NCBI GenBank assembly: GCA_041653115.1
Contig: JBAZGA010000004.1
Location: 4,660-68,659, forward strand
Reading direction: 5' to 3'
DNA length: 64,000 bases
From: Candidatus Omnitrophota bacterium
Lineage (GTDB): Bacteria; Omnitrophota; Gorgyraeia; Gygaellales; Profunditerraquicolaceae
The translations under genes and the position numbers were made by a program. The first letter of the stretch is position 1, and each line of letters begins with the position of its first letter. Shown here in pieces: positions 21,679 to 45,738 of this stretch. Under the pieces are notes generated by a model that was not told the origin of the DNA, ran no database searches, and worked only from the letters and a program-made list of their open reading frames with translations.

Positions 21679-22602
21679 CTAATTGCTCATTAGGTCGTTA
21701 AAATCTTCGCTGGAATAGATAATCAACCTCGGCCTGCCTATGAGCGTGACCTTTTTTTCCAGCGCCGTATAAACTGCTTCGTCGCTATAAGTAATATTCT
21801 CGCCGCGCACGGTTTTCACATTGCCGCGGGCAATAATCCTGTCAATGCTGGTGCCCATCAAAAGCGGGTCTTTCCCGTCTTTGCCTGCTGCGCCTGAATT
21901 ATCTTTTTTGGCGGCGAAATAAACGTCCATCGTATCGCTGTAAATCTGGGAATCCACTCTCTCCACCTTGACATTATTCTTAAAGGTAGCGATATTCTTT
22001 TCGTAATCTATTTCTAACGGCCCGTCGCAGGTAATGATGGTGGCGTTCTCGGCGCTGGCAAGCTCTTCTTTTTCAGGCGCCTGAGGGCTGATCTTCACCG
22101 TTACCTCTTTCTCCAGGGCCATTTTATTCAGATTAGGCCTGCCCAGGGCGCCGCGGGCAGTCGTCTCCATCGTCTCTTTTTTTATATTCACGACGTCTTT
22201 GGTCGAAACAACTTCATTCGCCCTGTCCCAATCCAGGGAATCGGTGAGCAGCCTCCCTCCGGATGAGGTGGTAATCACTACGTTCTGCTCTACGTGTATC
22301 TTGCCGCTTTCTTTATCAAAATCACCCTTATCCGCCGTAAGCTTAACGTCCTCTTTTTCTCCGTACATATTACCGACGATATCCTTGAGCTTGATGATAT
22401 TGTCAAAGATATCCGCGGATTTACCTGAAAGATCCCAGGACTTTTTTCCTTTTTCTCCGAAGCCCGATAAGGAAAACTCGCTGATCTGCTGGTCGGCGTC
22501 GGCGGTATTTTCTGCCTGCTTCGGGGTTTTTTGTTCCCGGGCATAGACAAGAGAAGCAAAAAGGAAGACGAAAATAAAAGCAGTTATAAACCTCTTAGGC
22601 AT
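21679..22602 (-). CDS. LptC/LptA-family (OstA-like) LPS transport periplasmic protein
   Basis: 307 aa. N-terminal anchor/signal, then beta-jellyroll OstA-like repeats. Its position between kdsC and lptB matches the yrbK-yhbN arrangement. Confidence 0.6.
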   Translation of the reverse strand: MPKRFITAFIFVFLFASLVYAREQKTPKQAENTADADQQISEFSLSGFGEKGKKSWDLSGKSADIFDNIIKLKDIVGNMYGEKEDVKLTADKGDFDKESGKIHVEQNVVITTSSGGRLLTDSLDWDRANEVVSTKDVVNIKKETMETTARGALGRPNLNKMALEKEVTVKISPQAPEKEELASAENATIITCDGPLEIDYEKNIATFKNNVKVERVDSQIYSDTMDVYFAAKKDNSGAAGKDGKDPLLMGTSIDRIIARGNVKTVRGENITYSDEAVYTALEKKVTLIGRPRLIIYSSEDFNDLMSN

Positions 22603-23122
22603 CGTAAAGCCCTATGCACTCCTGCCATTTCCCCTGTGACTTCAGGATTAACTCAGCTACCTCGCGCACCGCGCCCCGGCCGCCGAGTTTCAAGGTGATG
22701 TAGGCGGCGGCTTGCTTGATTTCCGGGCAGGCGTTAAATACCGCGATGGGCAAACCCACCCTTTTCATCAGGCATAAATCCACTAAGTCATCCCCGACAA
22801 AACAGATTTCCTCGCGGCTGACCTTATACTTCTTCAATATTCTATCCAGGACGCTGCTTTTAGGGGAAACATCGGCAAAGACTTCCTCTACGCGCATATC
22901 TCTGGCGCGCGGTTTGAGCGTGCGCGAGCCCTTGGCGGTAATCAGCAGAGTCGGAATGCCGGATTTTTTCAGCAAATAAACCCCTAAGCCGTCATGCACG
23001 TCAAAGAACTTGGAATCCCGGCCGCGGGAATCATAGATGATCCGGCCGTCAGTAAGAACGCCGTCTACGTCCAAGAGCAGTAATTTGATTTTTTTCGCTT
23101 TCTCTAAGATACCTGCTTCCAT
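22595..23122 (-). CDS. kdsC: 3-deoxy-D-manno-octulosonate 8-phosphate phosphatase (HAD)
   Basis: 175 aa. LLLLDVDGVLTDGRIIY...FVGDDLVD motifs of KdsC. Confidence 0.88.
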   Translation of the reverse strand: MEAGILEKAKKIKLLLLDVDGVLTDGRIIYDSRGRDSKFFDVHDGLGVYLLKKSGIPTLLITAKGSRTLKPRARDMRVEEVFADVSPKSSVLDRILKKYKVSREEICFVGDDLVDLCLMKRVGLPIAVFNACPEIKQAAAYITLKLGGRGAVREVAELILKSQGKWQECIGLYDA

Positions 23123-23149
23123 AATTTTAGCCTAAAAGCCCAAAGAAAA

Positions 23150-23177
23150 ATAATACCATAACTACGGGGAAAATCAA
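23150..23177 (-). promoter_or_regulatory. sigma70-like promoter (-35 TTGATT, 16-nt spacer, -10 TATTAT) about 30 nt upstream of kdsC
   Basis: On the minus strand it reads TTGATT-N16-TATTAT. The same roughly 40-nt element recurs at 25712-25739 upstream of the 812-aa pilin-like gene. Confidence 0.5.
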
Positions 23178-23252
23178 GGGAATGTTTTCTAATTCTACGG
23201 GGGGGGCACTTACGGGATTGAGCGGTATAGGGTACGGGATTAAGCTGAAAAC

Positions 23253-25691
23253 TTAAAGAGGGCCGATAATATCTTCTCGGATATTCGGCGTAACGCCATT
23301 ATAATCATCATCAAAGCCGGAGGTTTTAGCGTCTGCATCGCCCCTGAAACCCATAGGATTAGCTGCTCTCGGCCCGCCGTAGGCGCCCATATCGCTGCGG
23401 GAGCTATCCGGATCCAAAATAGTAGGATTGCCGCCGTCAATGATGTATTCATTACCGGTTACTGCCAGATGATAAGCGGCATCTGCGTATACCGGGGCCT
23501 TCCTGATATTTCCCGGCGGCGTTGGCGGGTCGGGTGGCACTACTGGATAAGCCAAATCTCCTACGTCTGAGTAAGTAACCGTGGTATCGCTGCTCTTATC
23601 CAGGTTAGTAGTACTTGCCGGGGTAGGATTACCGTAACATATCGTATTGATGATATTAATTTTTCCGCTGGCATATGTTTGAGTATCTATCCCATCGCCG
23701 CTGCCGGAAACAGTATTTTGCGTAATTGTATTGTTAATAACGTTAAGCACCCCTGAACTGTAAACGCTGGCGTATATTCCGCCGGCGGAATTACTCGTAA
23801 TAATATTGTTAGAAACCATACTAGATGCGCCGCTGCCTGAACATCCGATAACGATTCCGGTCCATTGATTTTGGGTAATAATGTTATTGAACAAATCAAG
23901 AGAACCGTTATTTACAGTGTAAACCGCTGTGCCCGGGTTCATGCTGGTTACGGTATTATTGTAAAACCTGACTACGCCACCGCTATCATTATTCTGCACG
24001 CGTATCCCGCCTGTAGCCCCTTCAGTACCGCTGGTCTGGCCGTTATCTTTTAAAAAATTATTGGAAATATCGCAGCTGGAATCGCTGTCGATAGCGGTAT
24101 AGATTCCGCCGCCGTGTGAGCCAGAACTATTCCCGCTAATAATATTACTGGCAAGAGCGGCCTGACTTTCATTATTAAACATGGCAAGAATCCCGCCGCC
24201 TTCAGCGCTGGCGTTATTTTCTGCGATGATATTATTGAAAATGTCAACAACGGAGGAATCGCCGTAGGTATAAACGGCTATTCCGCCGCCCCTATAGCTT
24301 GTGCTGTTCCCGCTAATGAGGTTGTTGGCAATGTTAAGGTGGGAGTTATCGCGTACCTCGGCAGCACAGATCCCCCCGCCGCCCTCCTCTCCGCTAGTTG
24401 CTTCATTGCCGATAATGGAATTGTTGGTAATATTAATGCTAGAAGTATCTGACAGTTCGAGAGAAAGGCCGCCGCCGAGATAGGCGGAGTTTTTTTCTGC
24501 GGGAGTACTGCTTCCTATGCTATTCCCGGAAATGGTCAGGTTGGCGTCATTGCTGGCGATAGCGGTTATCGCGCCGCCATCGTATGCGGAGTTCCCTAAA
24601 AAGGTATTGCCGCTGATGACAAAACCAGATCCCTCGTAGGCGATAGCAAATATTCCGCCGCCCCGCTCAGAAAAATTTCCTGTAATAATATTATTGGAAA
24701 TGGTAAGGACCAGACCTGGAGAAAAAGCCCAGATTCCGCCGCCGATTCCGCCGCCAACACCCGAGGTATTATCTTTTATGCTATTATTGATAATGGTAAT
24801 AGGGCCTTGCATGGCCTGGGCAAAGATTCCGGCGCCGTTAGCTGACATACCGTTTTGTATGGTAAAGCCGTCTATAGCAGTATTACCGGTATAATTGTGG
24901 CTGGAAGTAATTACACTTCCTTGCCGGTTACCGTCAATAATCGTCTCATAATTAGAGTCGCCCAGATGCCTTGACCAGGTGATGTTGTCATAAGCGCCTT
25001 CCAGGGTCAGAGATTTATTGATGACAATACTCTCAACATAGGGTTGCTTATCGTTGGAAGAAACCTGGACGATATCGCTATTCGAGGCAGCGTCAATTGC
25101 TTCCTGAATGCCTGCGTAATAAGCCTTGATTGTCGTCCTTGAGGCATCTACTACTCTTACCAAACCGGCGCCCTTTGGGATACGGCAGAAGGCTAAGCTC
25201 TGCAGATAAGAGGACTTGTCAGCACGCTTATTGGGGTCTTGGGCTTCCAGGGTAATCCTGATGCCGCGGAAAATCTCAGCTGCGCCCAGACTTTCCAAGC
25301 CTTCCAGATTAAAGGTCTGGACATAGGGCAGGATAAGTTGAAAGTCGGCGGGCTGAGTAATATCCGGCCGGTAGCATAATTTTTTGTTTAAAGGATCAAT
25401 GGAATCCAGGTAATACTCGCTGGTGACTTCTGAGCCGGTAGGCGGCTTTTTAAAGAGCCGGAAAGAAGTGCCCGCTGCAGGGACAATTACGGAATTGGAT
25501 TCCTCGACCTCCCTGACCATCAGCTCCATCGCGTAAGAGGTACTCTGAAAGAGGAGAGCGCGGTAAATGCCCTTGTTGAACATCTGCAGCAAGCCGATCT
25601 GCATGGCATTTACACCCAGGACAATGGTGGCGATGATGGAGGTGGCGATCAGTAATTCGACGAGGGTAAGGGATTGCTTGGGCCTCTTCAT
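23253..25691 (-). CDS. type IV pilin-like (class III signal peptide) protein fused to a right-handed parallel beta-helix domain, paralog 1
   Basis: 812 aa. N-terminus MKRPKQS|LTLVELLIATSIIATIVLG (prepilin-type cleavage/methylation region, E at +5). The body is rich in NNIIxGN / GGGI beta-helix repeats. The C-terminal ~70 aa are shared with paralog 2. Confidence 0.75.
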   Translation of the reverse strand: MKRPKQSLTLVELLIATSIIATIVLGVNAMQIGLLQMFNKGIYRALLFQSTSYAMELMVREVEESNSVIVPAAGTSFRLFKKPPTGSEVTSEYYLDSIDPLNKKLCYRPDITQPADFQLILPYVQTFNLEGLESLGAAEIFRGIRITLEAQDPNKRADKSSYLQSLAFCRIPKGAGLVRVVDASRTTIKAYYAGIQEAIDAASNSDIVQVSSNDKQPYVESIVINKSLTLEGAYDNITWSRHLGDSNYETIIDGNRQGSVITSSHNYTGNTAIDGFTIQNGMSANGAGIFAQAMQGPITIINNSIKDNTSGVGGGIGGGIWAFSPGLVLTISNNIITGNFSERGGGIFAIAYEGSGFVISGNTFLGNSAYDGGAITAIASNDANLTISGNSIGSSTPAEKNSAYLGGGLSLELSDTSSINITNNSIIGNEATSGEEGGGGICAAEVRDNSHLNIANNLISGNSTSYRGGGIAVYTYGDSSVVDIFNNIIAENNASAEGGGILAMFNNESQAALASNIISGNSSGSHGGGIYTAIDSDSSCDISNNFLKDNGQTSGTEGATGGIRVQNNDSGGVVRFYNNTVTSMNPGTAVYTVNNGSLDLFNNIITQNQWTGIVIGCSGSGASSMVSNNIITSNSAGGIYASVYSSGVLNVINNTITQNTVSGSGDGIDTQTYASGKINIINTICYGNPTPASTTNLDKSSDTTVTYSDVGDLAYPVVPPDPPTPPGNIRKAPVYADAAYHLAVTGNEYIIDGGNPTILDPDSSRSDMGAYGGPRAANPMGFRGDADAKTSGFDDDYNGVTPNIREDIIGPL

Positions 25692-25711
25692 TTATCCCCT
25701 TTCCAACAAAA

Positions 25712-25739
25712 ATAATACCATAGCTATAGTGGAAATCAA
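25712..25739 (-). promoter_or_regulatory. sigma70-like promoter copy (-35 TTGATT, 16 nt, -10 TATTAT) upstream of pilin-like paralog 1
   Basis: Near-identical to the element at 23150-23177. Followed by the RBS AAAGGGGA and the ATG at 25691. Confidence 0.5.
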
Positions 25740-25780
25740 GGAATGTTTTGATTGACTGATGAACGGCAGGAAAGAATCTT

Positions 25781-27871
25781 TTAAAACGTACCGATGATAT
25801 CTTCCCGGTATGGCGTAGAGCCATCATCGGGGACGCCGGAATTAGGCAGGGTGCCTGTAAAACCTATGGTAGAAGTTGCTCCTGGCCCGCCATAGGCGCC
25901 CATGTCGCTACGGGAGCCGCCCGGGTCCAGGATAGCAGGATCGCCGCCGTCAATAATATATTCGTTACCGGTTGCTGCAAGATGATAAGCTGCATCTGCA
26001 TACACAGGAGCCTTATCAATATTTGTTTCCGGAGATACCGGCGGCACCGGATAACCTGTACCGCCGATGTCTGAATAGTTCTGAGAAAACACGCCTGAAC
26101 CTGTCGTAGAGATGCTATTAGCGGTATTATTATAATATATTGAATTGACTAAGGAAAAAGTGCTGCCGCTGCCAAGAGAAAGGTCTATTGCCGCTCCGCT
26201 ACCCGCTGAGTTTCCGGTAATGGTATTATTCGCCAGAAAAATAACAGCGTCATAGATATCGGCCTGAATTCCGCCAAACATACCCATGGAGACAGAATTG
26301 CTGGCGATAATGTTGTTGGTTATATGCATAGTATGTCCACTATAGTAAACGTAAGCCTTGATTCCGCCGGCCCTGCCAAAAGTACTATCAGAATGATTCT
26401 GGCTTATATCATTGTTGGCGATGTAGAAGGCAGTGCCTTGGCTGCGGGCATATATTCCGCCGCCGCCATCCCGGTTATTGCTATTTCCTCTTATACTATT
26501 GCTGGTGATGTAAAAAATGCCGTAGCTACAGGCAGCATATATTCCGCCGCCAGAGCCGGCATAAGAAATATTTTCTGTGATAAGATTGTTATTGATGCGA
26601 AAGTTACGAGTAGATCCGAAGGTGGTAGCGTATATTCCCCCGCCGCCAATATCGCTAGACTGAACATTATTTCTTATGGAATTATTGCTGATAACAACTT
26701 CAGCGCCGGAAGCCCGTATTCCGCCGCCAACATAACCTCTATTATCGTCTATAATATTATTGGTAATAAGCGCGGAAGAATCCGGCTCGAGACCAATACC
26801 TATTCCGCCGCCCTCAATATAATTATAAAAGATACCGCTCTTCTTCCCGTTCCCCGTTATGCTGTTGTTGGCGACTGTTAGGGTGACTGGCCCCTGGTCG
26901 GAATAATCAGCAAGATGAATTCCGCCGCCGGGATTTGCGGTAATAGTATTGTTGATGATGTTGAAAGAACCGCCTCCTCTGGGCGCAATACGGATTCCGC
27001 CATCACCGCTATTGACAGAGCTGAGGGACATCCCCCCATTTGTAATGATAAAGCTGTCTATGCTCACAGTTAAACCGGAGCCCTGGCAGTTAATTACAGT
27101 TCCGTCATCCTGGCCGTCGACGGTAGTATAAGTATTCACGCGGTCTTGAATATTAAAATTCGTATCGTAGCCTCCTTTGAGGGTAAGGGATTTGTTAACC
27201 GTAACGTTTTCCCTGAAAGTCCCGTCAAAGATACCGGAATTATTGCCCATACAGCGCACTTCATCGCCGGAAGACGCAGCGTCCACGGCATCCTGGATAG
27301 TACTGTAATAAGCCTTGATGGTGCCGCCGGAATCCCGTAATTGCACGAGATTACCGGCATTCTTGGGGATCCGGCAGAAAGCCAGGCTCTGCAGGTAAGA
27401 AGATTTATCCGTGCGTTTGTTAGGGTCTTCTGCTTCCAGGGTAATCCTGATGCCGCGGAAGGTATTAGGCGTGCCTAAGGCTTCTAGGCCCTCCGGCGTA
27501 AAGGCCTTGACATAGGGAAGGATGACTTGGAAATCGGCAGGTTGAGTAATATCTGCTCGGTAGCATAACTTCTTGTTCAAAGGGTCTGTGGAATCCAGGT
27601 AATACTCGCTGGTTTTTCCGGAATCGGTATTGACCAACTGGAAATAAGTTGCTCCTGTAGTGATGATTACGGAATTAGACTCCTCAACCTCTCTGACCAT
27701 CAGCTCCATCGCGTAAGAGGTGCTCTGGAAGAGGAGAGCGCGGTAAATGCCCTTGTTGAACATCTGCAGCAAGCCGATCTGCATGGCATTTACACCCAGG
27801 ACAATGGTGGCGATGATGGAGATGGCGATCAGTAATTCGACGAGGGTAAGGGATTGCTTGGTGGGTTTCAT
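25781..27871 (-). CDS. type IV pilin-like protein fused to a parallel beta-helix domain, paralog 2
   Basis: 696 aa. First ~230 aa about 85% identical to paralog 1 (MKPTKQSLTLVELLIAISIIATIVLG...). Divergent beta-helix repeat body; shared C-terminus KAPVYADAAYHLAATGNEYIIDGG...SRSDMGAYGGP. Confidence 0.75.
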   Translation of the reverse strand: MKPTKQSLTLVELLIAISIIATIVLGVNAMQIGLLQMFNKGIYRALLFQSTSYAMELMVREVEESNSVIITTGATYFQLVNTDSGKTSEYYLDSTDPLNKKLCYRADITQPADFQVILPYVKAFTPEGLEALGTPNTFRGIRITLEAEDPNKRTDKSSYLQSLAFCRIPKNAGNLVQLRDSGGTIKAYYSTIQDAVDAASSGDEVRCMGNNSGIFDGTFRENVTVNKSLTLKGGYDTNFNIQDRVNTYTTVDGQDDGTVINCQGSGLTVSIDSFIITNGGMSLSSVNSGDGGIRIAPRGGGSFNIINNTITANPGGGIHLADYSDQGPVTLTVANNSITGNGKKSGIFYNYIEGGGIGIGLEPDSSALITNNIIDDNRGYVGGGIRASGAEVVISNNSIRNNVQSSDIGGGGIYATTFGSTRNFRINNNLITENISYAGSGGGIYAACSYGIFYITSNSIRGNSNNRDGGGGIYARSQGTAFYIANNDISQNHSDSTFGRAGGIKAYVYYSGHTMHITNNIIASNSVSMGMFGGIQADIYDAVIFLANNTITGNSAGSGAAIDLSLGSGSTFSLVNSIYYNNTANSISTTGSGVFSQNYSDIGGTGYPVPPVSPETNIDKAPVYADAAYHLAATGNEYIIDGGDPAILDPGGSRSDMGAYGGPGATSTIGFTGTLPNSGVPDDGSTPYREDIIGTF

Positions 27872-28272
27872 GGCTGGATAACCAGGCCGAACAGCTGCTC
27901 CTGCTCTGCTCTTCCGTTACTCTCGGTCCAGCCGGTAGTAACGGTTATCTTTTTCCCTTCTGTAATTTGCTCTACGGTATATGAACGGCTGGCGCCGAAA
28001 ATATCTTTCAAATCGCAACTTGGCAGCGGAGAAATAGACTCTGCGGAATAAGGACCTCCCACATTCAATAAGGCATCGTCATAAGGCGTAATCAAAAGCG
28101 TCTCTAAGATTTCGCGGTCAAAACTCTGCGCCTGTAAACGGCGATGCGTAGTTTCGTTCCTGTTCTTGACATAAATAAAGCCGGCGGATAAAGCCAATAC
28201 GCCGACAGCGACAATGCTCACCGCGACGATTACCTCCAAGATGGTAAATGCTTTTAATTTATGTATACCCAT
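27868..28272 (-). CDS. type IV pilin/pseudopilin-like minor pilin
   Basis: 134 aa. LKAFTILEVIVAVSIVAVGVLAL N-terminal methylation-type helix; ATGA overlap with the downstream gene. Confidence 0.75.
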   Translation of the reverse strand: MGIHKLKAFTILEVIVAVSIVAVGVLALSAGFIYVKNRNETTHRRLQAQSFDREILETLLITPYDDALLNVGGPYSAESISPLPSCDLKDIFGASRSYTVEQITEGKKITVTTGWTESNGRAEQEQLFGLVIQP

Positions 28273-28646
28273 TCTATGATTTGGGCTGTGGAGCCGGCTT
28301 TCCTGACTGTCGCCTGAATTTTTTTATCCGCGGCTTCGTAAGTGCACACGGAAAGCACGCTGTATTCATCGGCGGCAACGGAAGAGATGGTAATCGCTAT
28401 ATTCTCCCCTTCTCCGGCGAGGATCCAGCCTGTCTCGCTGTCAAAATTATCATTCTTTATTTTATATACCCCCTTCTGTATCCCGGCTTCGGCAAAATAA
28501 AAGGCCTTCGTGCGATTGAGAGTATAATAACTTAAAAAGGTATTGCTAAGTGTAAATTTTATCCCGATAGCGATTAAAACAATCAAAAGCAGGATTATCG
28601 CCAGCACAATCATTAACGCAACTGCCTTAGAATTTAAACGCGTCAT
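28254..28646 (-). CDS. PilX-N-like minor pilin/pilus assembly protein
   Basis: 130 aa. TM helix followed by KAFYFAEAGIQ, resembling the PilX N-terminal domain motif. Overlaps kdsD by 4 nt. Confidence 0.6.
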   Translation of the reverse strand: MTRLNSKAVALMIVLAIILLLIVLIAIGIKFTLSNTFLSYYTLNRTKAFYFAEAGIQKGVYKIKNDNFDSETGWILAGEGENIAITISSVAADEYSVLSVCTYEAADKKIQATVRKAGSTAQIIEWVYIN

Positions 28647-29608
28647 ACCAACCCTGCCTTTAATAAATCCTGCACATCCAAAAGCCCGACCGGCCGCCTC
28701 TTTTTATCCACCACCGGCAATTCATCGATTTTCTTTTCGCGTAAAATCCTTAAGGCTTCTGCCGCCAGCATCTCCTCCCCGACTACAGTTGGCCGATACG
28801 TCATTGCCAGCTTTACCTTACGCTGGGAAAGGTTAGGGTCGCTTTCCAGGTGCCGGCGCAGGTCACCGTCGGTAAAAATCCCCACTAATTTGCCTTTCCT
28901 GTCCACTACCGAGGCGCTGCCGCAGCGCGCTTGGGTAATTTTTACCAATACCTCGGAAATTTTTTTATTCTCTCCCACTACCGGATTGTTTGCGCCGCTG
29001 CGCATAATATCCTTAACCTTTAAAAGCAGCCTTTTTCCCAGCAATCCGCCGGGATGATAAAAAGCGAAGTCTTTTTCCTTAAATCCCTTCGATTCCAGCA
29101 GGCAGACTGCCAGCGCGTCGGCCATCGCCAGGGTAGCTGTGGTGGAAGCGGTAGGAGCCAGTCCCAGAGGGCAAGCTTCTTTTTTTACTGAAACATCCAA
29201 CGCCACATCGCTATATTTGGCTAAAAGCGAATTTAAACTGCCGGTAAGGGCGATAATTTTTGCGCCGATTTTCTTTAAGAGCGGCAGGAGCTCTTTCATC
29301 TCCTGGTTTGCGCCGCTATTGGAAAGAATAATCACCGTGTCATCTGCGGTAACCTTGCCCAAATCCCCGTGGATTGCCTCAGCCGTATGCAGGAAGAGGC
29401 TCGGCGTGCCGGTGGAAGCAAGTGTCGCGGAGAACTTCTGGGCGATAATCCCGGTCTTGCCCATGCCGCTGACTACCACCCTGCCCTTGGTCTTTAGAAT
29501 TATGTCCAGGGCCTTTTGAAAACTCTTTCCCAGGCGCGGCTTTAAACCTCTGATTGCTTCCGATTCAATATCCAAAACCTCTTTTGCGCGTTTAAGCGTA
29601 TTCATCAT
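28643..29608 (-). CDS. kdsD: arabinose-5-phosphate isomerase (SIS plus tandem CBS)
   Basis: 321 aa. SIS motif VVVSGMGKTGIIAQK, followed by a CBS pair. Confidence 0.88.
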   Translation of the reverse strand: MMNTLKRAKEVLDIESEAIRGLKPRLGKSFQKALDIILKTKGRVVVSGMGKTGIIAQKFSATLASTGTPSLFLHTAEAIHGDLGKVTADDTVIILSNSGANQEMKELLPLLKKIGAKIIALTGSLNSLLAKYSDVALDVSVKKEACPLGLAPTASTTATLAMADALAVCLLESKGFKEKDFAFYHPGGLLGKRLLLKVKDIMRSGANNPVVGENKKISEVLVKITQARCGSASVVDRKGKLVGIFTDGDLRRHLESDPNLSQRKVKLAMTYRPTVVGEEMLAAEALRILREKKIDELPVVDKKRRPVGLLDVQDLLKAGLV

Positions 29609-37023: not shown

Positions 37024-38105
37024 TCCAGATACACCCCTTCCGTCTCTTTAATCATTTCTTCCTGCGAAAAACTTTCCCTGATAAAATTTCTCGCGTCAAC
37101 TCCCAGGTCCGCTCTTTTTTTTGCGTCATTAAGCAATCTTAATATTGCTTCGGATAGCCCGGCAACATCTGCCGGTTCGACTAATATGCCGTTTTTGCCG
37201 TCCTGAATCAAGCTTTTGATGCCGCCGACCCGCGAGCCAACCACTGCCAGCCCTTGCGCCATTGCCTCCATTAAAGCCAGGCCCAGCCCTTCTTTAAGAG
37301 AAGGCATCACGAATACGTCCATCACCGGGAGGATTTCTGCCGTATCCAAAACCGGCGGGATAAAAAAGACACTTCTCTTTATCCCGAGCTGCCGGCTTAA
37401 GCCGGCTAATTCCCTCTGCATCCTGCCTTTGCCGACAATCAATAACTGCGCCTGCGGCATATTTTCTAAAACACTTTTCATCGCTTCCAGCAGGTAAACG
37501 TGCCCCTTGACATCGGATAGCCGCGCGATGATCCCGATTACCGGAGCGCTGCTTAAACCCAGCTCTTTCCTTTTTTGTATTGAGTATCGGGCATCGTGTT
37601 TTGTGTACCTTTCGATATCTATCCCATTATGGATTATCTTTATTTTTTCTTCCTCCACGCCAAAATCCTTCACCAGGTGCTCTTTAACCTGCCCGCTTAT
37701 AGCAATCACCTTCTTGCCCCAGCAGGGAAAAATCCTGCGCGATAGCCTTCTTTTAAAGAATCCGTGGCAGGTGGAAATAAAGGGCTTTCCTGAATAACGG
37801 CTGAGTAAACAGGCCAATACCTGCGTGACGCGCGTATGCGCATGGATTATATCAATGTTCTTTTCTTTCGTAACTTTGAGCAATTTTACCAGGCTGATGA
37901 AGACCTTCGGGCTAAGCTCGGATTTTGTCTTGATGGGGATAGGGATATAAGTCACGCCTTCCTCCCGTAATCGGCCAAGCAGTTCTCCCGAGCTTGTAGC
38001 GACATAAAGATTGTGGCCCCTTTTTTTAAGGCCCTTGCCCAAGGTTAAAACATAGCTGGAAATACCGCCGATATCTAAATGACTGGTAAGCTGTATGATA
38101 TTCAT
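37005..38105 (-). CDS. GT4 glycosyltransferase (RfaG-like)
   Basis: 366 aa. GT-B GT4 pattern with the C-terminal EGLGLALMEAMAQGLAVVGSRVGG motif. Confidence 0.8.
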   Translation of the reverse strand: MNIIQLTSHLDIGGISSYVLTLGKGLKKRGHNLYVATSSGELLGRLREEGVTYIPIPIKTKSELSPKVFISLVKLLKVTKEKNIDIIHAHTRVTQVLACLLSRYSGKPFISTCHGFFKRRLSRRIFPCWGKKVIAISGQVKEHLVKDFGVEEEKIKIIHNGIDIERYTKHDARYSIQKRKELGLSSAPVIGIIARLSDVKGHVYLLEAMKSVLENMPQAQLLIVGKGRMQRELAGLSRQLGIKRSVFFIPPVLDTAEILPVMDVFVMPSLKEGLGLALMEAMAQGLAVVGSRVGGIKSLIQDGKNGILVEPADVAGLSEAILRLLNDAKKRADLGVDARNFIRESFSQEEMIKETEGVYLECAGKE

Positions 38106-40192
38106 GGCTTCAATAACCGATCAATCGCCTCTGATACTTCTTCCGGTCTGATGAGTTCCATGCATTTTTTATTTTTACACTTTGTTTTATAGCAGGGGCT
38201 GCAGTCCAGGTCTTTCTTGAGCAAAATATAATTTCCCGCCGGCACCAGGTGCCGTTTGGGGTCCGTAGGTCCAAAAAACGCGATAAACGGCGTATTCATT
38301 GCCGCGGCAATATGCAGAGGGGCTGAATCCGGTGAAATATAGACGGCACATTTCCTGATTAAGCAGGCAAGCTGATTAACCGTGGTCTTTGCGCAGGCAT
38401 TGATTAATTTGGTGTTTTTCACCGCCTTGATTAAAAGCTCTGCCTGGGGCAGGTCTTTCTCCGTACCGGTAATCACAATCCGCATTTCCTTACGGCCTAA
38501 ATTTTCGCAAAGCTCGATAATCTGCCGCAGGGACCAGTTTTTAGTCGGCCACCTAAGGCTGGCGCTGATATTTATCCCGACCAGCTTCTGGTTGGCGCTT
38601 ACCCATTCCGACTCCAGGAGTTCTTCTATATAATGCTCGTCTTCTTTACTCGGCCAAAGCTCCAGGCGCGGGTTCTTTAGATCTATGCCTAACAGCTTTA
38701 AGGCGCGGAATTGATGCGTCAGGGGATCCAGGGGTGCTTTATCGTCTTTGATGCCGTGGTTAAGCAGAAAGCCGAATTTCTTATTATTATACCCATAGCG
38801 GTTTAAGGCTAAACTGAAAGCGGCCAAAAGATGGCTCTTGCGGTTATTCTGCAAATCAATCACCAGGTCAAAATTCTTCTTTCTTAAAACCCTGGCTAAT
38901 TTCCAGAGGCCGGCTATTCCCTTGTCCTTGTTTTTGAAATCGCAGACCAGTAATTCATCGATATGGGGAGAACGCAAAACGACGTCCTTGGCTTCTTCGC
39001 TTACCAGAAAAGTAATTTTATGGCCGGGGAATTTTTCCCTGATTGCCCTGAGTGCCGCCGTGGAAAGTATCACGTCGCCGACGGAACTGAATTTAATCAC
39101 CAGGATATTCAGGCTGGAGAACGCGTCCTGATAGACCTTAAGGGTATTTTCTACCATCAACTCTATATTGTATTTTTCCTTTACTTTTTTATAGGCATTT
39201 TCCGCTAAATTATGCGCCAGTTGTTTATCTCTAAATATCCTGGCTATCGCCTCGCTCATGCCTTGCGGGTCGGAAGGGGCGACTAATAACCCGTTTATCC
39301 CGTCTTGAATAATATCGACAACCCCTCCTACTTTCGTCGCCACTACCGGCACGCCCGCTGCCTGCGCTTCGATAATTACCCTGCCGAAGGCCTCCTGGGT
39401 AGTTGTCGCCAGCACCAGGCAATCCAGATTTACCAGTATCGCCGGTATATCTCTCTGGTTGCCTAAAAATTCCGTGCAGTGCCACAGCCCCAGCCTCCTG
39501 ACTAAAACCTGCACCTGTTCTTTATACGCCTGCTTGGATAGAGGCGCCTCCCCGACAATCCAGATCTTAAGCCGGGGGATGGTCCTGGCCACCTTAGCCA
39601 TGGCTTTAATAAAATCCAAATGGCCCTTTATCGGCGTGATTCTTCCGATAATACCGACATTGAACTCATCGCTTCTTTTTACGTCGGGTTTTAAGAATTT
39701 GAATCTTTCCAGAGAGACGCTGCGCGGTATTAATTTGATGCGTTCGTAGGGAACCGAAAAATCATCGAGCATGTGCCTGGCAACCGCGTTACTTAAAACG
39801 ATTACCCTTTTCGCCCAGCCCATTACATAACTAAAAGGGTGTCTGCGGTAATAACCGTGGCAGGTCGTAATAAATACTTTTCCGGTTTTACGCGCCGCCA
39901 GATACGCGCTCCAGGCAGGTACCCGGGAACGCGCGTGGATAATATCTATATTTTCCTTATTGATAATCTCGACTAATTTAGGCACCATCTTGATTACCGT
40001 GAACAGCGACTTCTTATGTACCGGCAGTTGATAATGGATGGCGCCGTAAGATTCAAGTTCGCCGACCAGCTCTCCGCCGGCGGAAACTACTACCGCTTTA
40101 TGCCCTGACTTGACCAGGTATCTGGCTAAATCCAGAGTTCCCGTCTCAACCCCGCCCACATTCAGCTCAGGCAATACCTGAAGTATGTTCAT
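38102..40192 (-). CDS. GT4 glycosyltransferase fused to a GT9 heptosyltransferase domain
   Basis: 696 aa. The N-terminal ~350 aa are GT4 (EAFGRVIIEAQAAGVPVVATKVGG); the C-terminal half is GT9 (ILVIKFSSVGDVILSTAALRAI...APLHIAAAM). Confidence 0.8.
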   Translation of the reverse strand: MNILQVLPELNVGGVETGTLDLARYLVKSGHKAVVVSAGGELVGELESYGAIHYQLPVHKKSLFTVIKMVPKLVEIINKENIDIIHARSRVPAWSAYLAARKTGKVFITTCHGYYRRHPFSYVMGWAKRVIVLSNAVARHMLDDFSVPYERIKLIPRSVSLERFKFLKPDVKRSDEFNVGIIGRITPIKGHLDFIKAMAKVARTIPRLKIWIVGEAPLSKQAYKEQVQVLVRRLGLWHCTEFLGNQRDIPAILVNLDCLVLATTTQEAFGRVIIEAQAAGVPVVATKVGGVVDIIQDGINGLLVAPSDPQGMSEAIARIFRDKQLAHNLAENAYKKVKEKYNIELMVENTLKVYQDAFSSLNILVIKFSSVGDVILSTAALRAIREKFPGHKITFLVSEEAKDVVLRSPHIDELLVCDFKNKDKGIAGLWKLARVLRKKNFDLVIDLQNNRKSHLLAAFSLALNRYGYNNKKFGFLLNHGIKDDKAPLDPLTHQFRALKLLGIDLKNPRLELWPSKEDEHYIEELLESEWVSANQKLVGINISASLRWPTKNWSLRQIIELCENLGRKEMRIVITGTEKDLPQAELLIKAVKNTKLINACAKTTVNQLACLIRKCAVYISPDSAPLHIAAAMNTPFIAFFGPTDPKRHLVPAGNYILLKKDLDCSPCYKTKCKNKKCMELIRPEEVSEAIDRLLKP

Positions 40193-42138
40193 AATAATCT
40201 CTCTACTGCCTCGGCAATTATAAAGTTATCCTTTAAGGTATTCATCTCTGGCTTATCCCGCCAGATATCTGCGATAGTGCCGCCTAAATCGCCGGGGCCT
40301 ACAAGATGTATATATTTGTTTTTCGCGAAATGACGGATGAACCTTTGGTGCCTCCCGGGTAAGCCTGTGCCGGCGAATACCAATACATATTTTTTGCTGT
40401 TTACCGCTTCGGAAATCATGGAAATACTTTCCGGAGAAGTAACGATAATCTGGCTTAAACCCAATATCCCGCCTACTGCCTCGGGGATATTCTTTTCATT
40501 GGCGATAACCAGCAGTTTACAGCGGCTGTATTCCCGAAATTCTCTTTTTACCAGTTCCTCAACCTCTTTTGAGGTCCGGCGCGAAGTAGTGATTAAAAGA
40601 ACCGCATTCATTTTTTCCGCGGCCTGCTTTAGCTGCCGGATAACTTCCAGGACCATTTCTTGACTAAGCAAAAATTCCTTTGTATTGCCGCCGAGTAACA
40701 GGCCGATATGGGCAGCCGCCGGGTCGCGGCCGCCGGCTGTCAGCCGGCTTAATTTTTCCCTCTCGGTTTTGAGATATTCGTCATTGATTAAATTCAAAGC
40801 GCCCTCGGTAATCGCGATATTTTTCCTGCGCGGCGGATTATCGTGCCGCGGCATGATTACCAAATCAAAGCGCTTCGTGCTTAAAAACCCCGGGCGCAGG
40901 ATTACCACGGATTTAGCGGCGTTCTCCCGGGAGAGGACAAAATTTATCGGCGCGAGCGCTGAACCGCAGGAGATAATTATATCGGGCTTGGCGCTGATTA
41001 AAGACCGGTAGGTATCCGCGGCCAAAGAATTCCTCAAGCACCAGAGGCACCCCTGACAGCTATACCTGCCGGATAAAAGGCTGCTCAATGCCAGCGAGGA
41101 TGGAGCAAATTTATTTTTAAATCCTACTGCAACCGTGGTAATATGCGTATCTATGCCTTTATCCTTAAGATAGCCGGCGATAATATTCAGGGCGGCTTCT
41201 GACTGGCGCAGGTGCCCGGCTTTTTGGTCGCTTAAGATTAAGATATTTTTCTCTTTGGCGTATTTCCATATTTTATAAGTCCAGAGGTAATCCTTAGGGT
41301 ACCTGAGAATAAGTTTTTCAAATATAGCGACCAGCGACTGTAAATTATCGCGGATATCCTTCTCGGCATCTCCGGTCCTTTTAAGCTCAAGCGGCGGCTC
41401 AACAATCAGTTTATGGTAGGGGCCGTTTCTGCGCGTATAAAAAACCGGCAGGATTACCGCGTCATACTTCAGGGCGAGCCTGATTGCGCCGGTAGGCATT
41501 GAGGCATCCTGGCCAAAGAATTTAACCAGCGTGCCGGCCCTGCCTCCCTGATCAACGGTCATGCCAAAGGCTTCGTTATTTTTGAGCACCTGGATCAGCG
41601 CACGGGCCTGGTTTTCCCGCTGGATTATTTTACAGCCCCTCTCCTGTCTGTAAGCATTAAGTAATTTTTCCAGGCGCGGGTATCTCTGTCCGCGGACAAA
41701 CAAACTAAAAGGGTACCCTAAGTTAGCCGAAATAATGCTGGAGAGCTCCCAGCTGCCGGCATGCATGCCGGTAAAAATAATTCCCTTGCCTCTTTTAAAA
41801 GCCTCATCTACATAAGGCCTGCCTTCTATGGAAATATATTTATTGATGTATTTCTTATCAATCTTGGGAATAAGGAATATCTCGATAATGCTCTGGCCGA
41901 AATTCTCATAGAATTCTTTGCTGAGCCGCGATAATTGCCGCGCAGATAACTTGCCGCCAAGCGCCTTTTTTATGTTCGCATAGGCAACCGCCTTATGCTT
42001 GAGGTCAAAATAATAAAATAAGCTGCCGATTACCCTGCCCAGGAATAGGCTAAAGCCCAAAGGCAGCAAGCGGATTAGCGGGCCGACAACCTTAAGCGCG
42101 GCGTAACCCCAGTAATCGACGACGGAATTCTTCCTCAT
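40189..42138 (-). CDS. lipid A biosynthesis lauroyl/myristoyl acyltransferase (LpxL/HtrB) fused to an ELM1/DUF1022-like domain
   Basis: 649 aa. The N-terminal ~290 aa match the LpxL family (TM, then HAGSWEL). The C-terminal ~350 aa resemble the ELM1-like domain often encoded near lpxK/waaA. Overlaps lpxK by 47 nt. Confidence 0.7.
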   Translation of the reverse strand: MRKNSVVDYWGYAALKVVGPLIRLLPLGFSLFLGRVIGSLFYYFDLKHKAVAYANIKKALGGKLSARQLSRLSKEFYENFGQSIIEIFLIPKIDKKYINKYISIEGRPYVDEAFKRGKGIIFTGMHAGSWELSSIISANLGYPFSLFVRGQRYPRLEKLLNAYRQERGCKIIQRENQARALIQVLKNNEAFGMTVDQGGRAGTLVKFFGQDASMPTGAIRLALKYDAVILPVFYTRRNGPYHKLIVEPPLELKRTGDAEKDIRDNLQSLVAIFEKLILRYPKDYLWTYKIWKYAKEKNILILSDQKAGHLRQSEAALNIIAGYLKDKGIDTHITTVAVGFKNKFAPSSLALSSLLSGRYSCQGCLWCLRNSLAADTYRSLISAKPDIIISCGSALAPINFVLSRENAAKSVVILRPGFLSTKRFDLVIMPRHDNPPRRKNIAITEGALNLINDEYLKTEREKLSRLTAGGRDPAAAHIGLLLGGNTKEFLLSQEMVLEVIRQLKQAAEKMNAVLLITTSRRTSKEVEELVKREFREYSRCKLLVIANEKNIPEAVGGILGLSQIIVTSPESISMISEAVNSKKYVLVFAGTGLPGRHQRFIRHFAKNKYIHLVGPGDLGGTIADIWRDKPEMNTLKDNFIIAEAVERLL

Positions 42139-44868: not shown

Positions 44869-45738
44869 TTAAGCCCGGGGATGCGCTTTCTGATACACGC
44901 TTTTTAACTTCTCGGTGCTCAGGTGAGTATAAATCTGGGTAGTGGAAAGATTAGCGTGGCCTAAAAGCTCCTGCACGCTCCTTAAATCCGCCCCGCGGTT
45001 TAAAAGGTGCGTGGCGAAAGAGTGACGCAGGGTATGCGCCGAAATACCCTGCCTGATGCTTGCCAGGCCAAGATACTTCCTGACGATATTGCGCACCCCT
45101 CTGTCGGTGATGCGCTTGTCGTTCTTATTCAAAAACAAAGCCTCTGCCTGCCTCTTACGCCTATCCAGGTAGGTCTTTAATGCCCCCAGGGCGCACTCGC
45201 CGATCGGCACCAGGCGCTCTTTTTTGCCTTTGCCCATGACCTTGACCGTGCCGCTGATAAAATCTATGTCGGAGATATTTAACCCGACTACTTCCGAAAT
45301 ACGCATCCCGGTAGAGTAAAATGTTTCCAGTATCGCCCGGTCGCGCAAAGCGCGTTCGTTTTTTTCCGCCTTTGGCATCGCAGCGGCAATTAATTTAGCC
45401 ACCTCCTCCTCGGTCAAAAACTGCGGAAGGTGCTTATCCTGCTTGGGGCTGGAAAGGATAAGGATAGGGTTGGTCTTCAGCAACCCCTCGCGGGTTAAGA
45501 ATTTAAAGAAGGAACGCAGCGTAGAAAGATGACGCCCCACTGTCCTCGTGCCCAGATCTTTCTCTTTCAACACAGCTAAATACTTCCTTAGGGCCAGGTA
45601 ATCAATGTTCTCTATTGCCGTCTCTCCTAAAAATTTGCTGAAATCCTCTAAATCAAGGCGGTAATTCAGGATAGTATGCTGCGAATAATTTTTTTCGATT
45701 TCCAGGTAGCGCATAAATTTTTCGATATAACGTTCCAT
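44869..45738 (-). CDS. xerC: tyrosine site-specific recombinase XerC/XerD family
   Basis: 289 aa. N-terminal SAM-like core-binding domain; C-terminal catalytic motifs (ARLSEV-like RISEVVGL, HTLRHSFATHLL, LGHANLSTTQIYTH). Confidence 0.85.
   Translation of the reverse strand: MERYIEKFMRYLEIEKNYSQHTILNYRLDLEDFSKFLGETAIENIDYLALRKYLAVLKEKDLGTRTVGRHLSTLRSFFKFLTREGLLKTNPILILSSPKQDKHLPQFLTEEEVAKLIAAAMPKAEKNERALRDRAILETFYSTGMRISEVVGLNISDIDFISGTVKVMGKGKKERLVPIGECALGALKTYLDRRKRQAEALFLNKNDKRITDRGVRNIVRKYLGLASIRQGISAHTLRHSFATHLLNRGADLRSVQELLGHANLSTTQIYTHLSTEKLKSVYQKAHPRA

Follow-up and report, generated by a model that had tools for sequence, protein, structure and literature searches.

Gene content of the locus

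The window, a 64-kb stretch of DNA from a Candidatus Omnitrophota metagenome-assembled genome, carries two neighboring genes on the minus strand, here termed A (23253..25691, 812 aa) and B (25781..27871, 696 aa). Both open reading frames were confirmed at these coordinates in the ORF list of the window, and each gene is complete with its own translation start. The product of gene A (P0001) is labelled in the database as a hypothetical protein. Three modules can be distinguished in each gene, which are as follows: (i) a pilin module (A: codons 1-175, 25167-25691; B: codons 1-176, 27344-27871), (ii) a beta-helix cap and core, A-type in gene A (codons 176-730, 23502-25166) and B-type in gene B (codons 177 to ~620, 26012-27343), and (iii) a C-terminal module with tail (A: codons 731-812, 23256-23501; B: codons ~621-696, 25784-26011), all on the minus strand.

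Two small genes on the same strand complete a conserved trio with the large genes. A PilV/GspI-like minor pilin (27868..28272, 134 aa) shows the prepilin motif KAFTILEVIVA with Glu at +5, and its stop codon shares an ATGA with the start codon of gene B. It scored 17.8 bits for the prepilin N-terminal domain TIGR02532, over the cut-off of 16.3, and matched PilV (E 1e-4), GspI (E 1.6e-3) and, at the gathering score, N_methyl. The first gene of the trio (28254..28646, 130 aa), whose start overlaps the kdsD stop, is a PilX/GspK-like minor pilin candidate. Its product has a hydrophobic N-terminus with the motif AFYFAEAGIQ, lacks Glu at +5, and has conserved homologues in loci L001, L002, L005, L007 and L009 of other genomes. 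One of these homologues is matched by PilX_N (E 0.0015), a ComZ match was weak, and the GspK sequence model found no match in the cluster; from these sequence features we provisionally infer the PilX/GspK-like assignment. The overlaps within the trio suggest translational coupling.

This pilin island sits inside an LPS operon, between kdsD upstream (SIS + CBS arabinose-5-phosphate isomerase; 28643..29608, minus strand; 76-79% identical to relatives) and kdsC downstream (KDO-8-phosphate phosphatase family; 22595..23122, minus strand; 75-79%). A FimU/GspH-like fourth minor pilin and a major pilin are absent from the cluster. Those window ORFs that were scanned contained no type IVa assembly gene; the only matches were a TadA/CpaF-like ATPase and an MshEN-PilZ protein.

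Domain architecture and predicted structure

According to our analysis, A and B are modular minor pilins, in which a prepilin N-terminus with a GspJ/PilW-like fold is followed by a right-handed beta-helix and a family-specific C-terminal tail. The analysis demonstrates this architecture, its predicted fold and the conserved three-gene module. The N-terminal module of ~175 aa comprises a class III (prepilin) signal, an alpha-1 helix of ~55 residues and a GspJ/PilW-like beta-sheet, and the beta-helix of ~400-550 aa is grafted C-terminally onto it. Beta_helix (Pfam) matches A and B with E-values of 1e-14 and 7e-11. N_methyl (Pfam) scored 17.3 and 19.3 bits, under its gathering score of 21.2, and in both proteins the residue preceding the predicted cleavage site is Ser, the canonical one being Gly. 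Glu at +5 is invariant across the N-terminal modules of the family, and a profile of 26 such modules matched solved type IV pilins in their alpha-1 helices (E 1e-5 to 2e-4). The curated GspJ and PilW sequence models did not match A or B.

The AF2 model of full-length B (pLDDT 84.9) shows a helix at residues 10-64, a sheet at 67-165 and a beta-helix at 176-600; modeled alone (pLDDT 91.1), the N-terminal module likewise forms a helix at 10-64 followed by a beta-sheet. Its best Foldseek matches are two minor pseudopilins, XcpW/GspJ (3nje) and EpsJ (2ret_H), each with probability 1.00, with E-values that are marginal (1e-3 and 1e-2; TM 0.45-0.50) and with a predicted model as query. The core, also searched as a predicted model, matched beta-helix proteins, among them Rhombotarget A, AlgG, AlgE4 and RbmB; both enzymes and binding proteins are represented in its structural neighbourhood.

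Distribution of the family

About 40 relatives of A and B were found, none of which carries a pilin annotation; the named members are all from Omnitrophota and are labelled only as hypothetical or beta-helix proteins. The trio of two small genes and one large gene recurs in L001, L002, L005, L007/L012, L009 and L013. At the kdsD-kdsC site the copy number of the large gene is one in L001, two in the window and five in L012, where the five-gene array has alike 5' ends in the same pattern as A and B. Between these genomes, identity is 75-82% for flanking housekeeping proteins and 29-50% for pilin-island proteins.

The kdsD-kdsC setting of the island, found in three genomes, and the lptF/G genes adjoining the L002 trio would also fit beta-helix polysaccharide-active enzymes or envelope proteins that are fixed to the inner membrane through a pilin-like signal anchor and tied to LPS, KDO and Lpt functions, outside any filament. 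The structural neighbours of the core point the same way, as they include the periplasmic alginate epimerase AlgG, AlgE4, polygalacturonases and the lyase RbmB. We regard this reading as unlikely, however, since the invariant Glu at +5, the GspJ-like fold of the N-terminal module and the constant PilV/GspI-like and PilX/GspK-like partners are hallmarks of a filament tip. Moreover, the trio adjoins PilM/N/O genes in L005 and lies in unrelated contexts in some other genomes, and no catalytic motif was identified in the beta-helix.

Similarity between genes A and B

As the initial annotation had described, A and B are tandem genes with alike ends and divergent cores: blastn returned three matching blocks, and the cores are ~38% identical with numerous indels. 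Family cores from other genomes are at least as near to the A core as the B core is. The 5' block covers 511 nt at 83% identity (25681-25173 against 27861-27362, E 1e-132). The 3' coding block, located in the C-terminal module, covers 138 nt at 83% (23364..23501 in A, 25877..26014 in B, minus strand), and the block in the 3' flank, estimated earlier at ~40 nt, spans 43 nt at 86% (23188-23146 against 25749-25708). Within the 5' block lies a near-identical tract of 195 nt (25487..25681 in A, 27667..27861 in B, minus strand), with 188 of the positions (96%) identical and one 133-nt run containing a single mismatch; the tract encodes the prepilin motif together with the greater part of helix alpha-1. 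The near-identity over ~190 nt reported for this stretch stands, but the coordinate pair given for it (25501-25690/27661-27850) is shifted by 20 nt, the A-B offset in the tract being 2180 nt.

On the amino-acid level, residues 1-66 are 95% identical; identity falls to 83% for 1-175 and to 75% for 1-230, the last value replacing the previous figure of ~85% over ~230 residues. The conserved C-terminus, originally put at ~70 aa, is a module of ~75 aa with 72% identity across the last ~80 aa. The unevenness of similarity along the genes is statistically real, because a maximum chi-square test places a breakpoint at nt 206, with 12/206 mismatches before and 87/325 after it (permutation p <= 0.0005). 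Uniform similarity, which the initial annotation had set against its own reading, was not seen.

Each of the shared 3' flanks (25708..25749 behind B, 23146..23188 behind A, minus strand) holds the same promoter-like site, TTGATT, 16 nt, TGgTATTAT. One copy (25739-25712) is located just upstream of A, the other (23177-23150) upstream of kdsC. Because the motif also precedes kdsC in L012, the copy before kdsC probably represents the ancestral promoter of this gene, and the copy before A a duplicate.

Divergence and probable recombination history

Synonymous divergence between A and B is 0.20 over codons 1-66, 1.42 over codons 91-175 and 2.3 over codons 176-260, and the core is saturated; the difference between the first tract and the remaining pilin module is significant (Fisher p 1.4e-6). 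In the C-terminal block, dS is 0.84 and dN 0.06. Judged from these values, the duplication is not recent, contrary to what had been proposed, because dS outside the 5' tract is 0.8-2.3 or saturated and the caps are of two ancient types, each common to other genomes.

These values might also be expected from a simple old tandem duplication without recombination, in which the ends stayed alike under stronger purifying selection than the core. The high dS of 0.8-1.4 in most of the conserved regions fits such a history, as do the low dN/dS of the pilin module (0.07) and C-terminal block (0.08) next to a core that tolerates change. Selection on the protein does not, however, explain the seven-fold drop of dS in codons 1-66 or the 133-nt run with its one mismatch. 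The N-terminal segment is not intrinsically invariant either, as that of A or B shares only ~34% identity with P0003, a syntenic single-copy protein that is among the nearest to A in the cap. Given in addition the conflict between segment trees described below, we consider this history quite improbable. Gene conversion, as suggested initially, is the best explanation of the first ~200 nt of sequence, with the 195-nt tract as putative conversion tract, although selection on mRNA or codon use in the membrane-targeting segment could account for the low dS in part.

In the tree of the pilin module, A and B are sisters in 200/200 bootstraps, and in 196/200 when the recent tract is left out. In the cap tree they are sisters in 0/200, and the split between A-type and B-type caps is recovered in 194/200. 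The A cap is nearest to P0125, P0123, L004 and P0003 (53-58%) and the B cap to P0126 and P0128 (50-51%), whereas the two caps share 41%. Over the C-terminal 95 aa, A and B are again mutual nearest relatives (68%). The conflict between segment trees supports an exchange, over evolutionary time, of the beta-helix core between conserved ends. The cassette-like exchange envisaged earlier holds in this sense, but not as a recent A-B event, because synonymous sites in the cores are saturated.

Search for a variation system

A variable core bounded by conserved 5' and 3' ends, a demonstrable conversion tract, a copy number that varies among relatives and surface-exposed products of a probably host-associated lineage (PMC10066038) are what one might expect if the ends served as handles by which beta-helix cassettes are swapped often within the population, as in Neisseria pilE/pilS. 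Such programmed variation, the antigenic or adhesin variation system of the initial annotation, is nevertheless very unlikely. No silent or partial cassettes and no extra copy of either end or core were found within the 64-kb window, and both existing copies are translatable genes. At the locus there was no G4 motif, no SSR and no adjoining recombinase, and inverted repeats of at least 11 nt were lacking within 400 nt of either intergenic region; a broader repeat scan returned only short imperfect pairs inside repeat regions. Conversion has homogenised the conserved module and left the variable one untouched. In addition, L007/L008 and L009/L010/L011, which are orthologous or related loci, are 100% identical across different samples. 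What keeps the ends of A and B alike is recombination between old copies of the gene; neither a recent duplication nor a switchable antigen system accounts for them.

A second copy of the A/B locus was not found in any collection searched, and only one assembly is known to contain the contig. As the 133-nt repeat is long enough to mislead short-read assemblers, near-identical 5' tracts could in principle have produced a chimeric or mis-joined contig with a false tandem or false pairing of ends and cores. Both ORFs are, however, uninterrupted and of family-typical architecture from end to end, synteny is kept on both sides, and like tandem arrays occur in an independent 378-kb contig and its second sample, so that we consider an artefact extremely doubtful.

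Comparison with known systems

In the following, we take IPR039448 to be the right-handed beta-helix domain. Modular pilins are widespread (PMC8179133), and those of Streptococcus sanguinis, PilB with a vWA and PilC with a lectin module (Raynaud et al. 2021, PMC8179133), resemble A and B in combining an N-terminal pilin module with class III signal, a short linker and a bulky functional module presumed to lie at the filament tip. Dataset S1 of that study contains the architecture IPR012902 - IPR039448 in 3 proteins. A and B differ in their GspJ/PilW-like pilin module, in the long G-rich right-handed beta-helix with conserved C-terminal tail, and in their copy-number-variable tandem arrays of mosaic ancestry; no member of their family has been studied before. 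Beta-solenoid pilins at pilus tips are known from Thermus thermophilus ComZ (PDB 6QVI; PMC6561018) and cyanobacterial PilX (bioRxiv 10.64898/2026.02.12.705559), where the solenoid is likewise part of a minor pilin belonging to the tip or priming complex and is proposed to take the place of PilY1 by serving as a tip plug, as an adhesin or as a receptor for ligands. In A and B, by contrast, the beta-helix is located C-terminally on a GspJ/PilW-type subunit that retains Glu5, and their PilX-like partner has only 130 aa.

The trio of a Glu5-less, a GspI/PilV-like and a GspJ-fold subunit recalls GspK-GspI-GspJ of the T2SS and PilX-PilV-PilW(-FimU) of T4aP, and XcpW and EpsJ are the best structural matches of the N-terminal module. 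Unlike these complexes, the A/B cluster has no GspH/FimU-like fourth member and no match to the GspJ, PilW or GspK sequence models, the beta-helix makes its J-type subunit 4-5 times larger, and it is located in an LPS operon instead of a pilus or secretion operon. Gene conversion among pilin-family paralogues with conserved segments is shared with Neisseria pilE/pilS, yet here silent partial cassettes (within the window) and a G4 initiator are missing, conversion hits the constant N-terminal part, and relatives show no population heterogeneity. With chlamydial Pmp and other paralogous beta-helix adhesins, A and B have in common that they form a paralogous family of G-rich parallel beta-helix surface proteins in a PVC-related lineage, and many distant homologues of the A/B core carry PF02415 (Chlam_PMP), which did not match A or B themselves. 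Pmp belong to the autotransporters, with a beta-barrel at the C-terminus and a Sec signal; both features are missing from A and B, which are anchored by the pilin module.

Proposed role of A and B

We consider it probable that A and B represent paralogous minor pilins of modular build with alternative beta-helix heads, shaped by mosaic evolution. The two cores would descend from two ancient beta-helix types, and the pilin and C-terminal modules would have been kept alike within the genome by recombination, because both must fit the same partners and machinery. The ~200-nt gene-conversion tract at the 5' end would be the latest event. The array may grow and shrink by unequal crossing-over at its fixed site between kdsD and kdsC, and one such event may also have placed the kdsC promoter copy before A.

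Nearly all Omnitrophota have type IVa pili, which have been tied to host attachment (PMC10066038). We posit that A and B act in a type IV, most likely a type IVa pilus, presumably using type IVa machinery, and that together with the PilX/GspK-like and PilV/GspI-like proteins they may form a GspK-I-J-type tip or priming complex which presents the beta-helix head. The heads of A and B might then differ in binding or, possibly, in glycan-processing specificity, and we infer that the two proteins likely function as alternative pilus-tip adhesins or glycan-binding heads.

Architecture of the two paralogs

Genes A (23253-25691, minus strand, 812 aa) and B (25781-27871, minus strand, 696 aa) each encode a pilin module, a beta-helix made up of a cap and a core (residues 176-730 of A and 177-620 of B), and a C-terminal module. 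Both N-termini read MK(R/P)(P/T)KQS↓LTLVELLIA (arrow, putative cleavage site), which corresponds to a basic leader and a hydrophobic stretch with Glu at +5. This Glu is invariant among 26 family members, while residue -1 is Ser in A and B and Gly, Ala or Ser across the family. When the N-terminal 175 residues are used as a profile, the alpha-1 helices of type IV pilins of known structure are matched (E 1e-5 to 2e-4), and Pfam N_methyl is matched by A and B at E-values of 8e-4 and 3e-3, under its gathering score. Directly after the pilin module (residues 1-175), both proteins match the Pfam domain Beta_helix (PF13229). For B, AlphaFold2 predicts (pLDDT 84.9) a 55-residue helix (10-64), an antiparallel sheet (67-165) and a right-handed beta-helix (176-600) that starts at ~176, beyond the final strand of the pilin sheet and a conserved C-R motif; the C-terminus is a module of ~75 aa, of which the last 20 residues are predicted to be disordered.

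Modelled alone, the N-terminal module (AlphaFold2, pLDDT 91.1) is predicted to form a long alpha-helix on an antiparallel beta-sheet, as in the lollipop fold. Its best Foldseek match in the PDB is XcpW/GspJ (3nje; prob 1.00, E 1.2e-3, TM 0.45/0.50), followed by EpsJ (2ret_H; prob 1.00, E 1.2e-2) and then by matches of at most 0.18, a likeness to GspJ that is drawn from predicted structures at marginal Foldseek E-values. Among the NCBIfam models, neither GspJ nor PilW was matched by A or B, and B matched PilV weakly (E 0.011, 16 bits vs a cut-off of 52). The Foldseek neighbours of the beta-helix core include the beta-helix proteins Rhombotarget A, AlgG, AlgE4 and RbmB.

A and B fall under the definition of modular pilins. 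With InterPro entries mapped to Pfam, the architecture 'pilin motif + right-handed beta-helix' is already listed, unstudied, in the catalogue of such proteins by Raynaud et al. (PMC8179133). In ComZ and the cyanobacterial PilX proteins, the beta-solenoid is an insert in the beta-sheet of a PilX-type pilin that lacks Glu5, whereas the carrier in A and B is J-type with Glu5 and the beta-helix is a C-terminal fusion.

Similarity between A and B

In a pairwise blastn comparison, A and B share exactly three blocks and none besides: 511 nt at the 5' ends (83% identity), 138 nt near the 3' ends (83%) and 43 nt 3' of each stop codon (86%), the last agreeing with the ~40 nt of common flank described in the initial annotation. 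The near-identical 5' ends of ~190 nt reported there were also recovered, with 188 of 195 nt identical and a 133-nt run containing one mismatch. The true pair is 25487-25681 in A and 27667-27861 in B, the pairing first given (25501-25690 with 27661-27850) being 20 nt out of register. Protein identity is 95% over residues 1-66, 83% over 1-175 and 75% over 1-230, lower than the ~85% first estimated for the latter stretch. It amounts to 47% over residues 176-260 and to 38%, with numerous indels, in the core; over the final ~80 residues it is 72%, in line with the proposed conserved C-terminus of ~70 aa. The uneven similarity and divergent central region seen at first reading were thereby borne out, with blastn blocks at the ends only.

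A maximum chi-square test placed a breakpoint at nt 206, with mismatches at 12/206 positions before and 87/325 after it (permutation p ≤ 0.0005), and the uneven similarity along the genes is therefore real and non-random. The sole source of the contig is one Candidatus Omnitrophota MAG assembly. Two further ORFs, at 25450-25827 (minus strand, 125 aa) and 26324-26881 (plus strand, 185 aa), overlap A and B in another frame or on the other strand. As both fall in repeat-rich coding sequence, they were treated as frame shadows and are very probably no real genes.

Mosaic ancestry

Nei-Gojobori estimates for A vs B gave a dS of 0.20 (dN 0.027) over codons 1-66 and 0.09 (dN 0.063) over codons 1-30, compared with 1.42 (dN 0.10) over codons 91-175 and 2.3 (dN 0.64) over codons 176-260. 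In the core dS is saturated (dN 0.66), and in the C-terminal block it is 0.84 (dN 0.06). Within the pilin module, A/B divergence differs significantly between the first part and the second (Fisher p 1.4e-6). The low 5' divergence does not stem from an intrinsically invariant segment, because A or B is only ~34% identical there to P0003, the single large protein at the corresponding kdsD|kdsC site of a relative (L001); selection on the mRNA could account for part of the low 5' dS. The conversion proposed in the initial annotation is supported by the step in dS from 0.20 to 1.42, and the recent date of the duplication is contradicted by the high or saturated dS outside the 5' tract.

The segment trees conflict, which supports the proposed exchange of the variable beta-helix core on an evolutionary timescale. 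The tree of the pilin module joins A with B as sisters in 200/200 bootstraps, and in 196/200 when the recent tract is left out. In the cap tree they are never sisters, and an A-type/B-type split is found in 194/200 bootstraps: the A cap is closest to those of P0125, P0123, locus L004 and P0003 (53-58%), the B cap to those of P0126 and P0128 (50-51%), and the two caps are 41% identical to each other. The rest of the A core resembles B no more than it resembles members of the family in other genomes, and at the C-terminus A and B are nearest neighbours again (68%). Deeper in the tree, both clades of the pilin module contain both cap types. The same pattern of common 5' ends is seen in the five-gene array of a relative (L012), with 70-90% identity over 200-650 nt and none beyond.

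Judging from these alignments and trees, we consider A and B to be an old pair with two ancient core types, the docking modules of which are probably kept alike by recombination; the latest such event would be the conversion tract of ~200 nt.

The common 3' flank holds a promoter-like site (TTGATT, 16 nt, TGgTATTAT), one copy of which precedes kdsC and a duplicate gene A; the motif also precedes kdsC in L012. The kdsC promoter was therefore carried along when the tandem pair was created or re-joined, and gene A has consequently a promoter-like site and a Shine-Dalgarno sequence of its own, in contrast to B, which is translationally coupled to the small PilV/GspI-like (V-like) gene upstream of it. 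The sole homopolymer of at least 8 nt in the locus is a run of G8 at 23199-23206 (C8 in coding orientation), in the intergenic region of gene A and kdsC. It lies ~20 nt upstream of the -35-like hexamer and leaves the promoter spacing unaffected.

Search for a programmed variation system

A and B had also been likened to antigenic or adhesin variation systems. Variation of the pilE/pilS type combines one expression locus with silent, promoterless partial copies; in contrast, A and B are both full-length, and blastn and tblastn found no further copy of them, full or partial, in the 64-kb window. The tracts of such systems replace the variable region, whereas the recent tract between A and B covers the conserved 5' 200 nt, that is, the constant part. 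The interval 22000-29600 lacks G4 motifs, and inverted repeats of at least 11 nt are missing up to 400 nt from both intergenic regions; a broader repeat scan returned just short imperfect pairs inside repeat regions. The locus contains no SSR; the G/C runs present measure 6-8 nt, and the longest (8 nt) lies outside genes. No recombinase is encoded next to A and B; a XerC/D-like gene (44869-45738) adjoins topA and dprA, 19 kb off. With silent cassettes missing from the window, G4 motifs, such inverted repeats and SSRs missing from the locus and the recent tract in the constant part, we consider a programmed variation system very unlikely.

Related loci do not differ between samples (100% identity over 6-8 kb). 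No second instance of the A/B locus was found in the collections searched, the exact-protein look-up for B being without record and the 90% clusters of A and B single-member, and two metagenome scans (peptide patterns; a degenerate 54-nt pattern) yielded no strain variant.

For a target of a diversity-generating retroelement (DGR), which would come with a template/variable repeat pair, the window offered no additional repeat of any part of A or B and no reverse transcriptase among the ORFs scanned, those at 11.5-18.2 kb being identified by synteny with L012 only. As candidate autotransporters or Pmp proteins, A and B contain no autotransporter or Chlam_PMP domain (Pfam), no C-terminal beta-barrel translocator and no Sec signal peptide. 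The DGR, autotransporter/Pmp and T9SS-sorted adhesin readings were rejected because their defining parts are absent.

A family of pilin::beta-helix proteins

With the N-terminal 265 residues as query, an exhaustive HMM search identified ~40 proteins of 480-950 aa that match across this entire region. All members of the family that bear a name come from Omnitrophota, where their annotation is 'hypothetical' or 'beta-helix (repeat)' protein. Common to all is one plan, consisting of the pilin module up to C-R, an N-cap, a variable helix, the motif 'DMGAYGGPGA' and usually a tail. The A-type cap reads 'D(I/V)VQVSSN(D/N)K.PY.E ... W.RH..D..YETIIDG' and the B-type cap 'DE(I/V)RCMG...FDG.F.EN ... T.QD...NTP.TIDG'.

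The acidic tail 'DD..T..IRED(I/V)IGT(Y/F)' is located at the C-terminus or within ~12 residues of it. It is encoded at 23256-23300 in A and 25784-25830 in B, is also present in P0013, P0122, P0126-P0130, P0135, P0137, P0139 and others, and is confined to the pilin::beta-helix family among 265 beta-helix proteins compared. AlphaFold2 predicts it to be disordered. We know of no sorting signal that it resembles, and it may be a docking peptide. In some members the tail reads '...STGYIG.KLPGL.AG.DYIE' instead, and '(L/I)GPQ' forms the end of several.

Outside the window, giant proteins of 2,000-5,900 aa (P0136, P0138, P0140-P0146 and others) contain 5-9 copies of a segment like the N-cap (profile positions ~186-264). 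In very long proteins, the cap thus acts as the start of a module that can be used repeatedly. A contig scan with a generic prepilin motif turned up 599 candidates, all of them false, and no relative; a second scan retrieved only L003, on the same contig as L001, and L004. The TPA assemblies of L001/L003 and L004 bear the label 'uncultured Planctomycetales bacterium', which is probably coarse or mistaken, as their kds/lpt genes share 75-82% identity with the ones in the Omnitrophota window.

A conserved trio and its genomic context

Upstream of B lie the V-like gene (27868-28272), which passes the curated prepilin-domain cut-off and resembles PilV/GspI, and an X-like gene (28254-28646), which lacks Glu5 and has a PilX_N-like 'AFYFAEAG' motif with weak PilX_N and ComZ signals. 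The latter is a weak candidate for a PilX/GspK-like partner. Sequence-profile searches of both proteins against the PDB returned weak N-terminal pilin matches only. The four island genes (X-like, V-like, B, A) overlap or abut. The co-encoding of a large gene of the A/B kind with GspI/PilV-like and GspK/PilX-like partners is conserved as a trio in six other loci and occurs in every locus of sufficient length.

The island lies between kdsD and kdsC inside a long LPS operon (lpxK, waaA, lpxL, heptosyltransferases, kdsB/A/D/C, lptC-A/B). The trio sits exactly between kdsD and kdsC in three related genomes (window 22595-29608, L001 and L012), a position that may reflect co-regulation with outer-membrane biogenesis or mere chance. 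L001 has the order kdsB-kdsA-kdsD-[128][115][576]-kdsC-lptC, and L007/L012, at the site identical to that of the window, kdsD-[123][133]-[756][786][806][874][798]-kdsC-lptC/A-lptB-tig-clpP. By synteny, the copy number at one chromosomal site is therefore 1, 2 or 5 large genes. In the genomes sharing this site, flanking housekeeping proteins are 75-82% identical and the pilin-island proteins merely 29-50%. GC content is flat across the island (0.45-0.51) and gives no signal of horizontal transfer.

In other relatives the trio adjoins lptF/G (L002) or PilM/N and PilO (L005), follows a CHASE2-GGDEF gene (L013) or lies near one together with a ShlB-type transporter (L009). The CHASE2-GGDEF diguanylate cyclase is directly beside the trio in these last two, unrelated contexts (L009 4809-6494; L013 7266-9005), hinting that the trio may be under c-di-GMP control.

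The window itself encodes, at its edge, a TadA/CpaF-like secretion ATPase of the T2SSE family (636-1895, minus strand; best NCBIfam model TIGR03819, below cut-off) and, elsewhere, a protein with MshEN (c-di-GMP-binding) and PilZ domains (51195-52064, minus strand); it thus holds filament-related genes, but none for type IVa assembly among the ORFs scanned.

Three minus-strand genes of the window are fusions: LptC with an LptA/OstA-like domain (21679-22602, 307 aa), conserved in L001 and L012; GT4 with a GT9 heptosyltransferase (38102-40192, 696 aa); and a lipid A acyltransferase with an ELM1-like domain (40189-42138, 649 aa). In L002 (1-3392), the large subunit of a ribonucleotide reductase is split by two inteins (Intein_splicing + LAGLIDADG, twice).

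A possible tip-head system

GspK-I-J and PilX-V-W are tip complexes. Both are summarised in PMC8179133 and bioRxiv 10.64898/2026.02.12.705559. By analogy, we infer that the Glu5-less X-like protein would cap a short bundle with the V-like and J-like subunits, that this bundle would prime a type IV filament, and that the J-like subunit would display a beta-helix of roughly 400-550 residues, with A and B as alternative heads. The beta-helix may stand in for a missing PilY1-type tip protein, as has already been proposed for ComZ and the cyanobacterial PilX solenoids, and it may bind or cleave a glycan.

Omnitrophota are ultra-small, uncultured bacteria thought to be attached to, or predators of, other cells. 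Type IVa pili are near-universal among them, are considered attachment devices for a host-dependent life, and rank among their most conserved 'symbiosis' traits (PMC10066038). We tentatively put forward, as a rather unlikely reading, a combinatorial tip-head system of Omnitrophota in which one X-V-J priming complex accepts interchangeable beta-helix heads that conversion keeps compatible. If so, the C-terminal docking tail and conversion of the pilin module would preserve head compatibility, and the surface glycans of host or prey that are bound would depend on a repertoire of 1 to 5 or more heads, which recombination reshuffles between lineages. In a bolder version, the heads could recognise LPS or polysaccharide or act on it, and their conserved place inside the KDO/Lpt operon would be accounted for.

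What appears to be new is the family with its C-terminal tail, its fixed position in the KDO/Lpt operon of one lineage, its arrangement in tandem arrays with 1 to 5 genes, and clear evidence of module swapping and gene conversion. The locus defines an unannotated family of ~40 large minor pilins, which would place a beta-helix head at the filament tip, and members now called 'hypothetical' or 'beta-helix repeat' could be re-annotated as pilin-like. It is a natural example of modular-pilin diversification, by module swapping and by gene conversion of the docking module. The beta-helix heads are the fast-evolving part, swapped between conserved pilin and C-terminal modules, and offer concrete candidates for determinants of host specificity.
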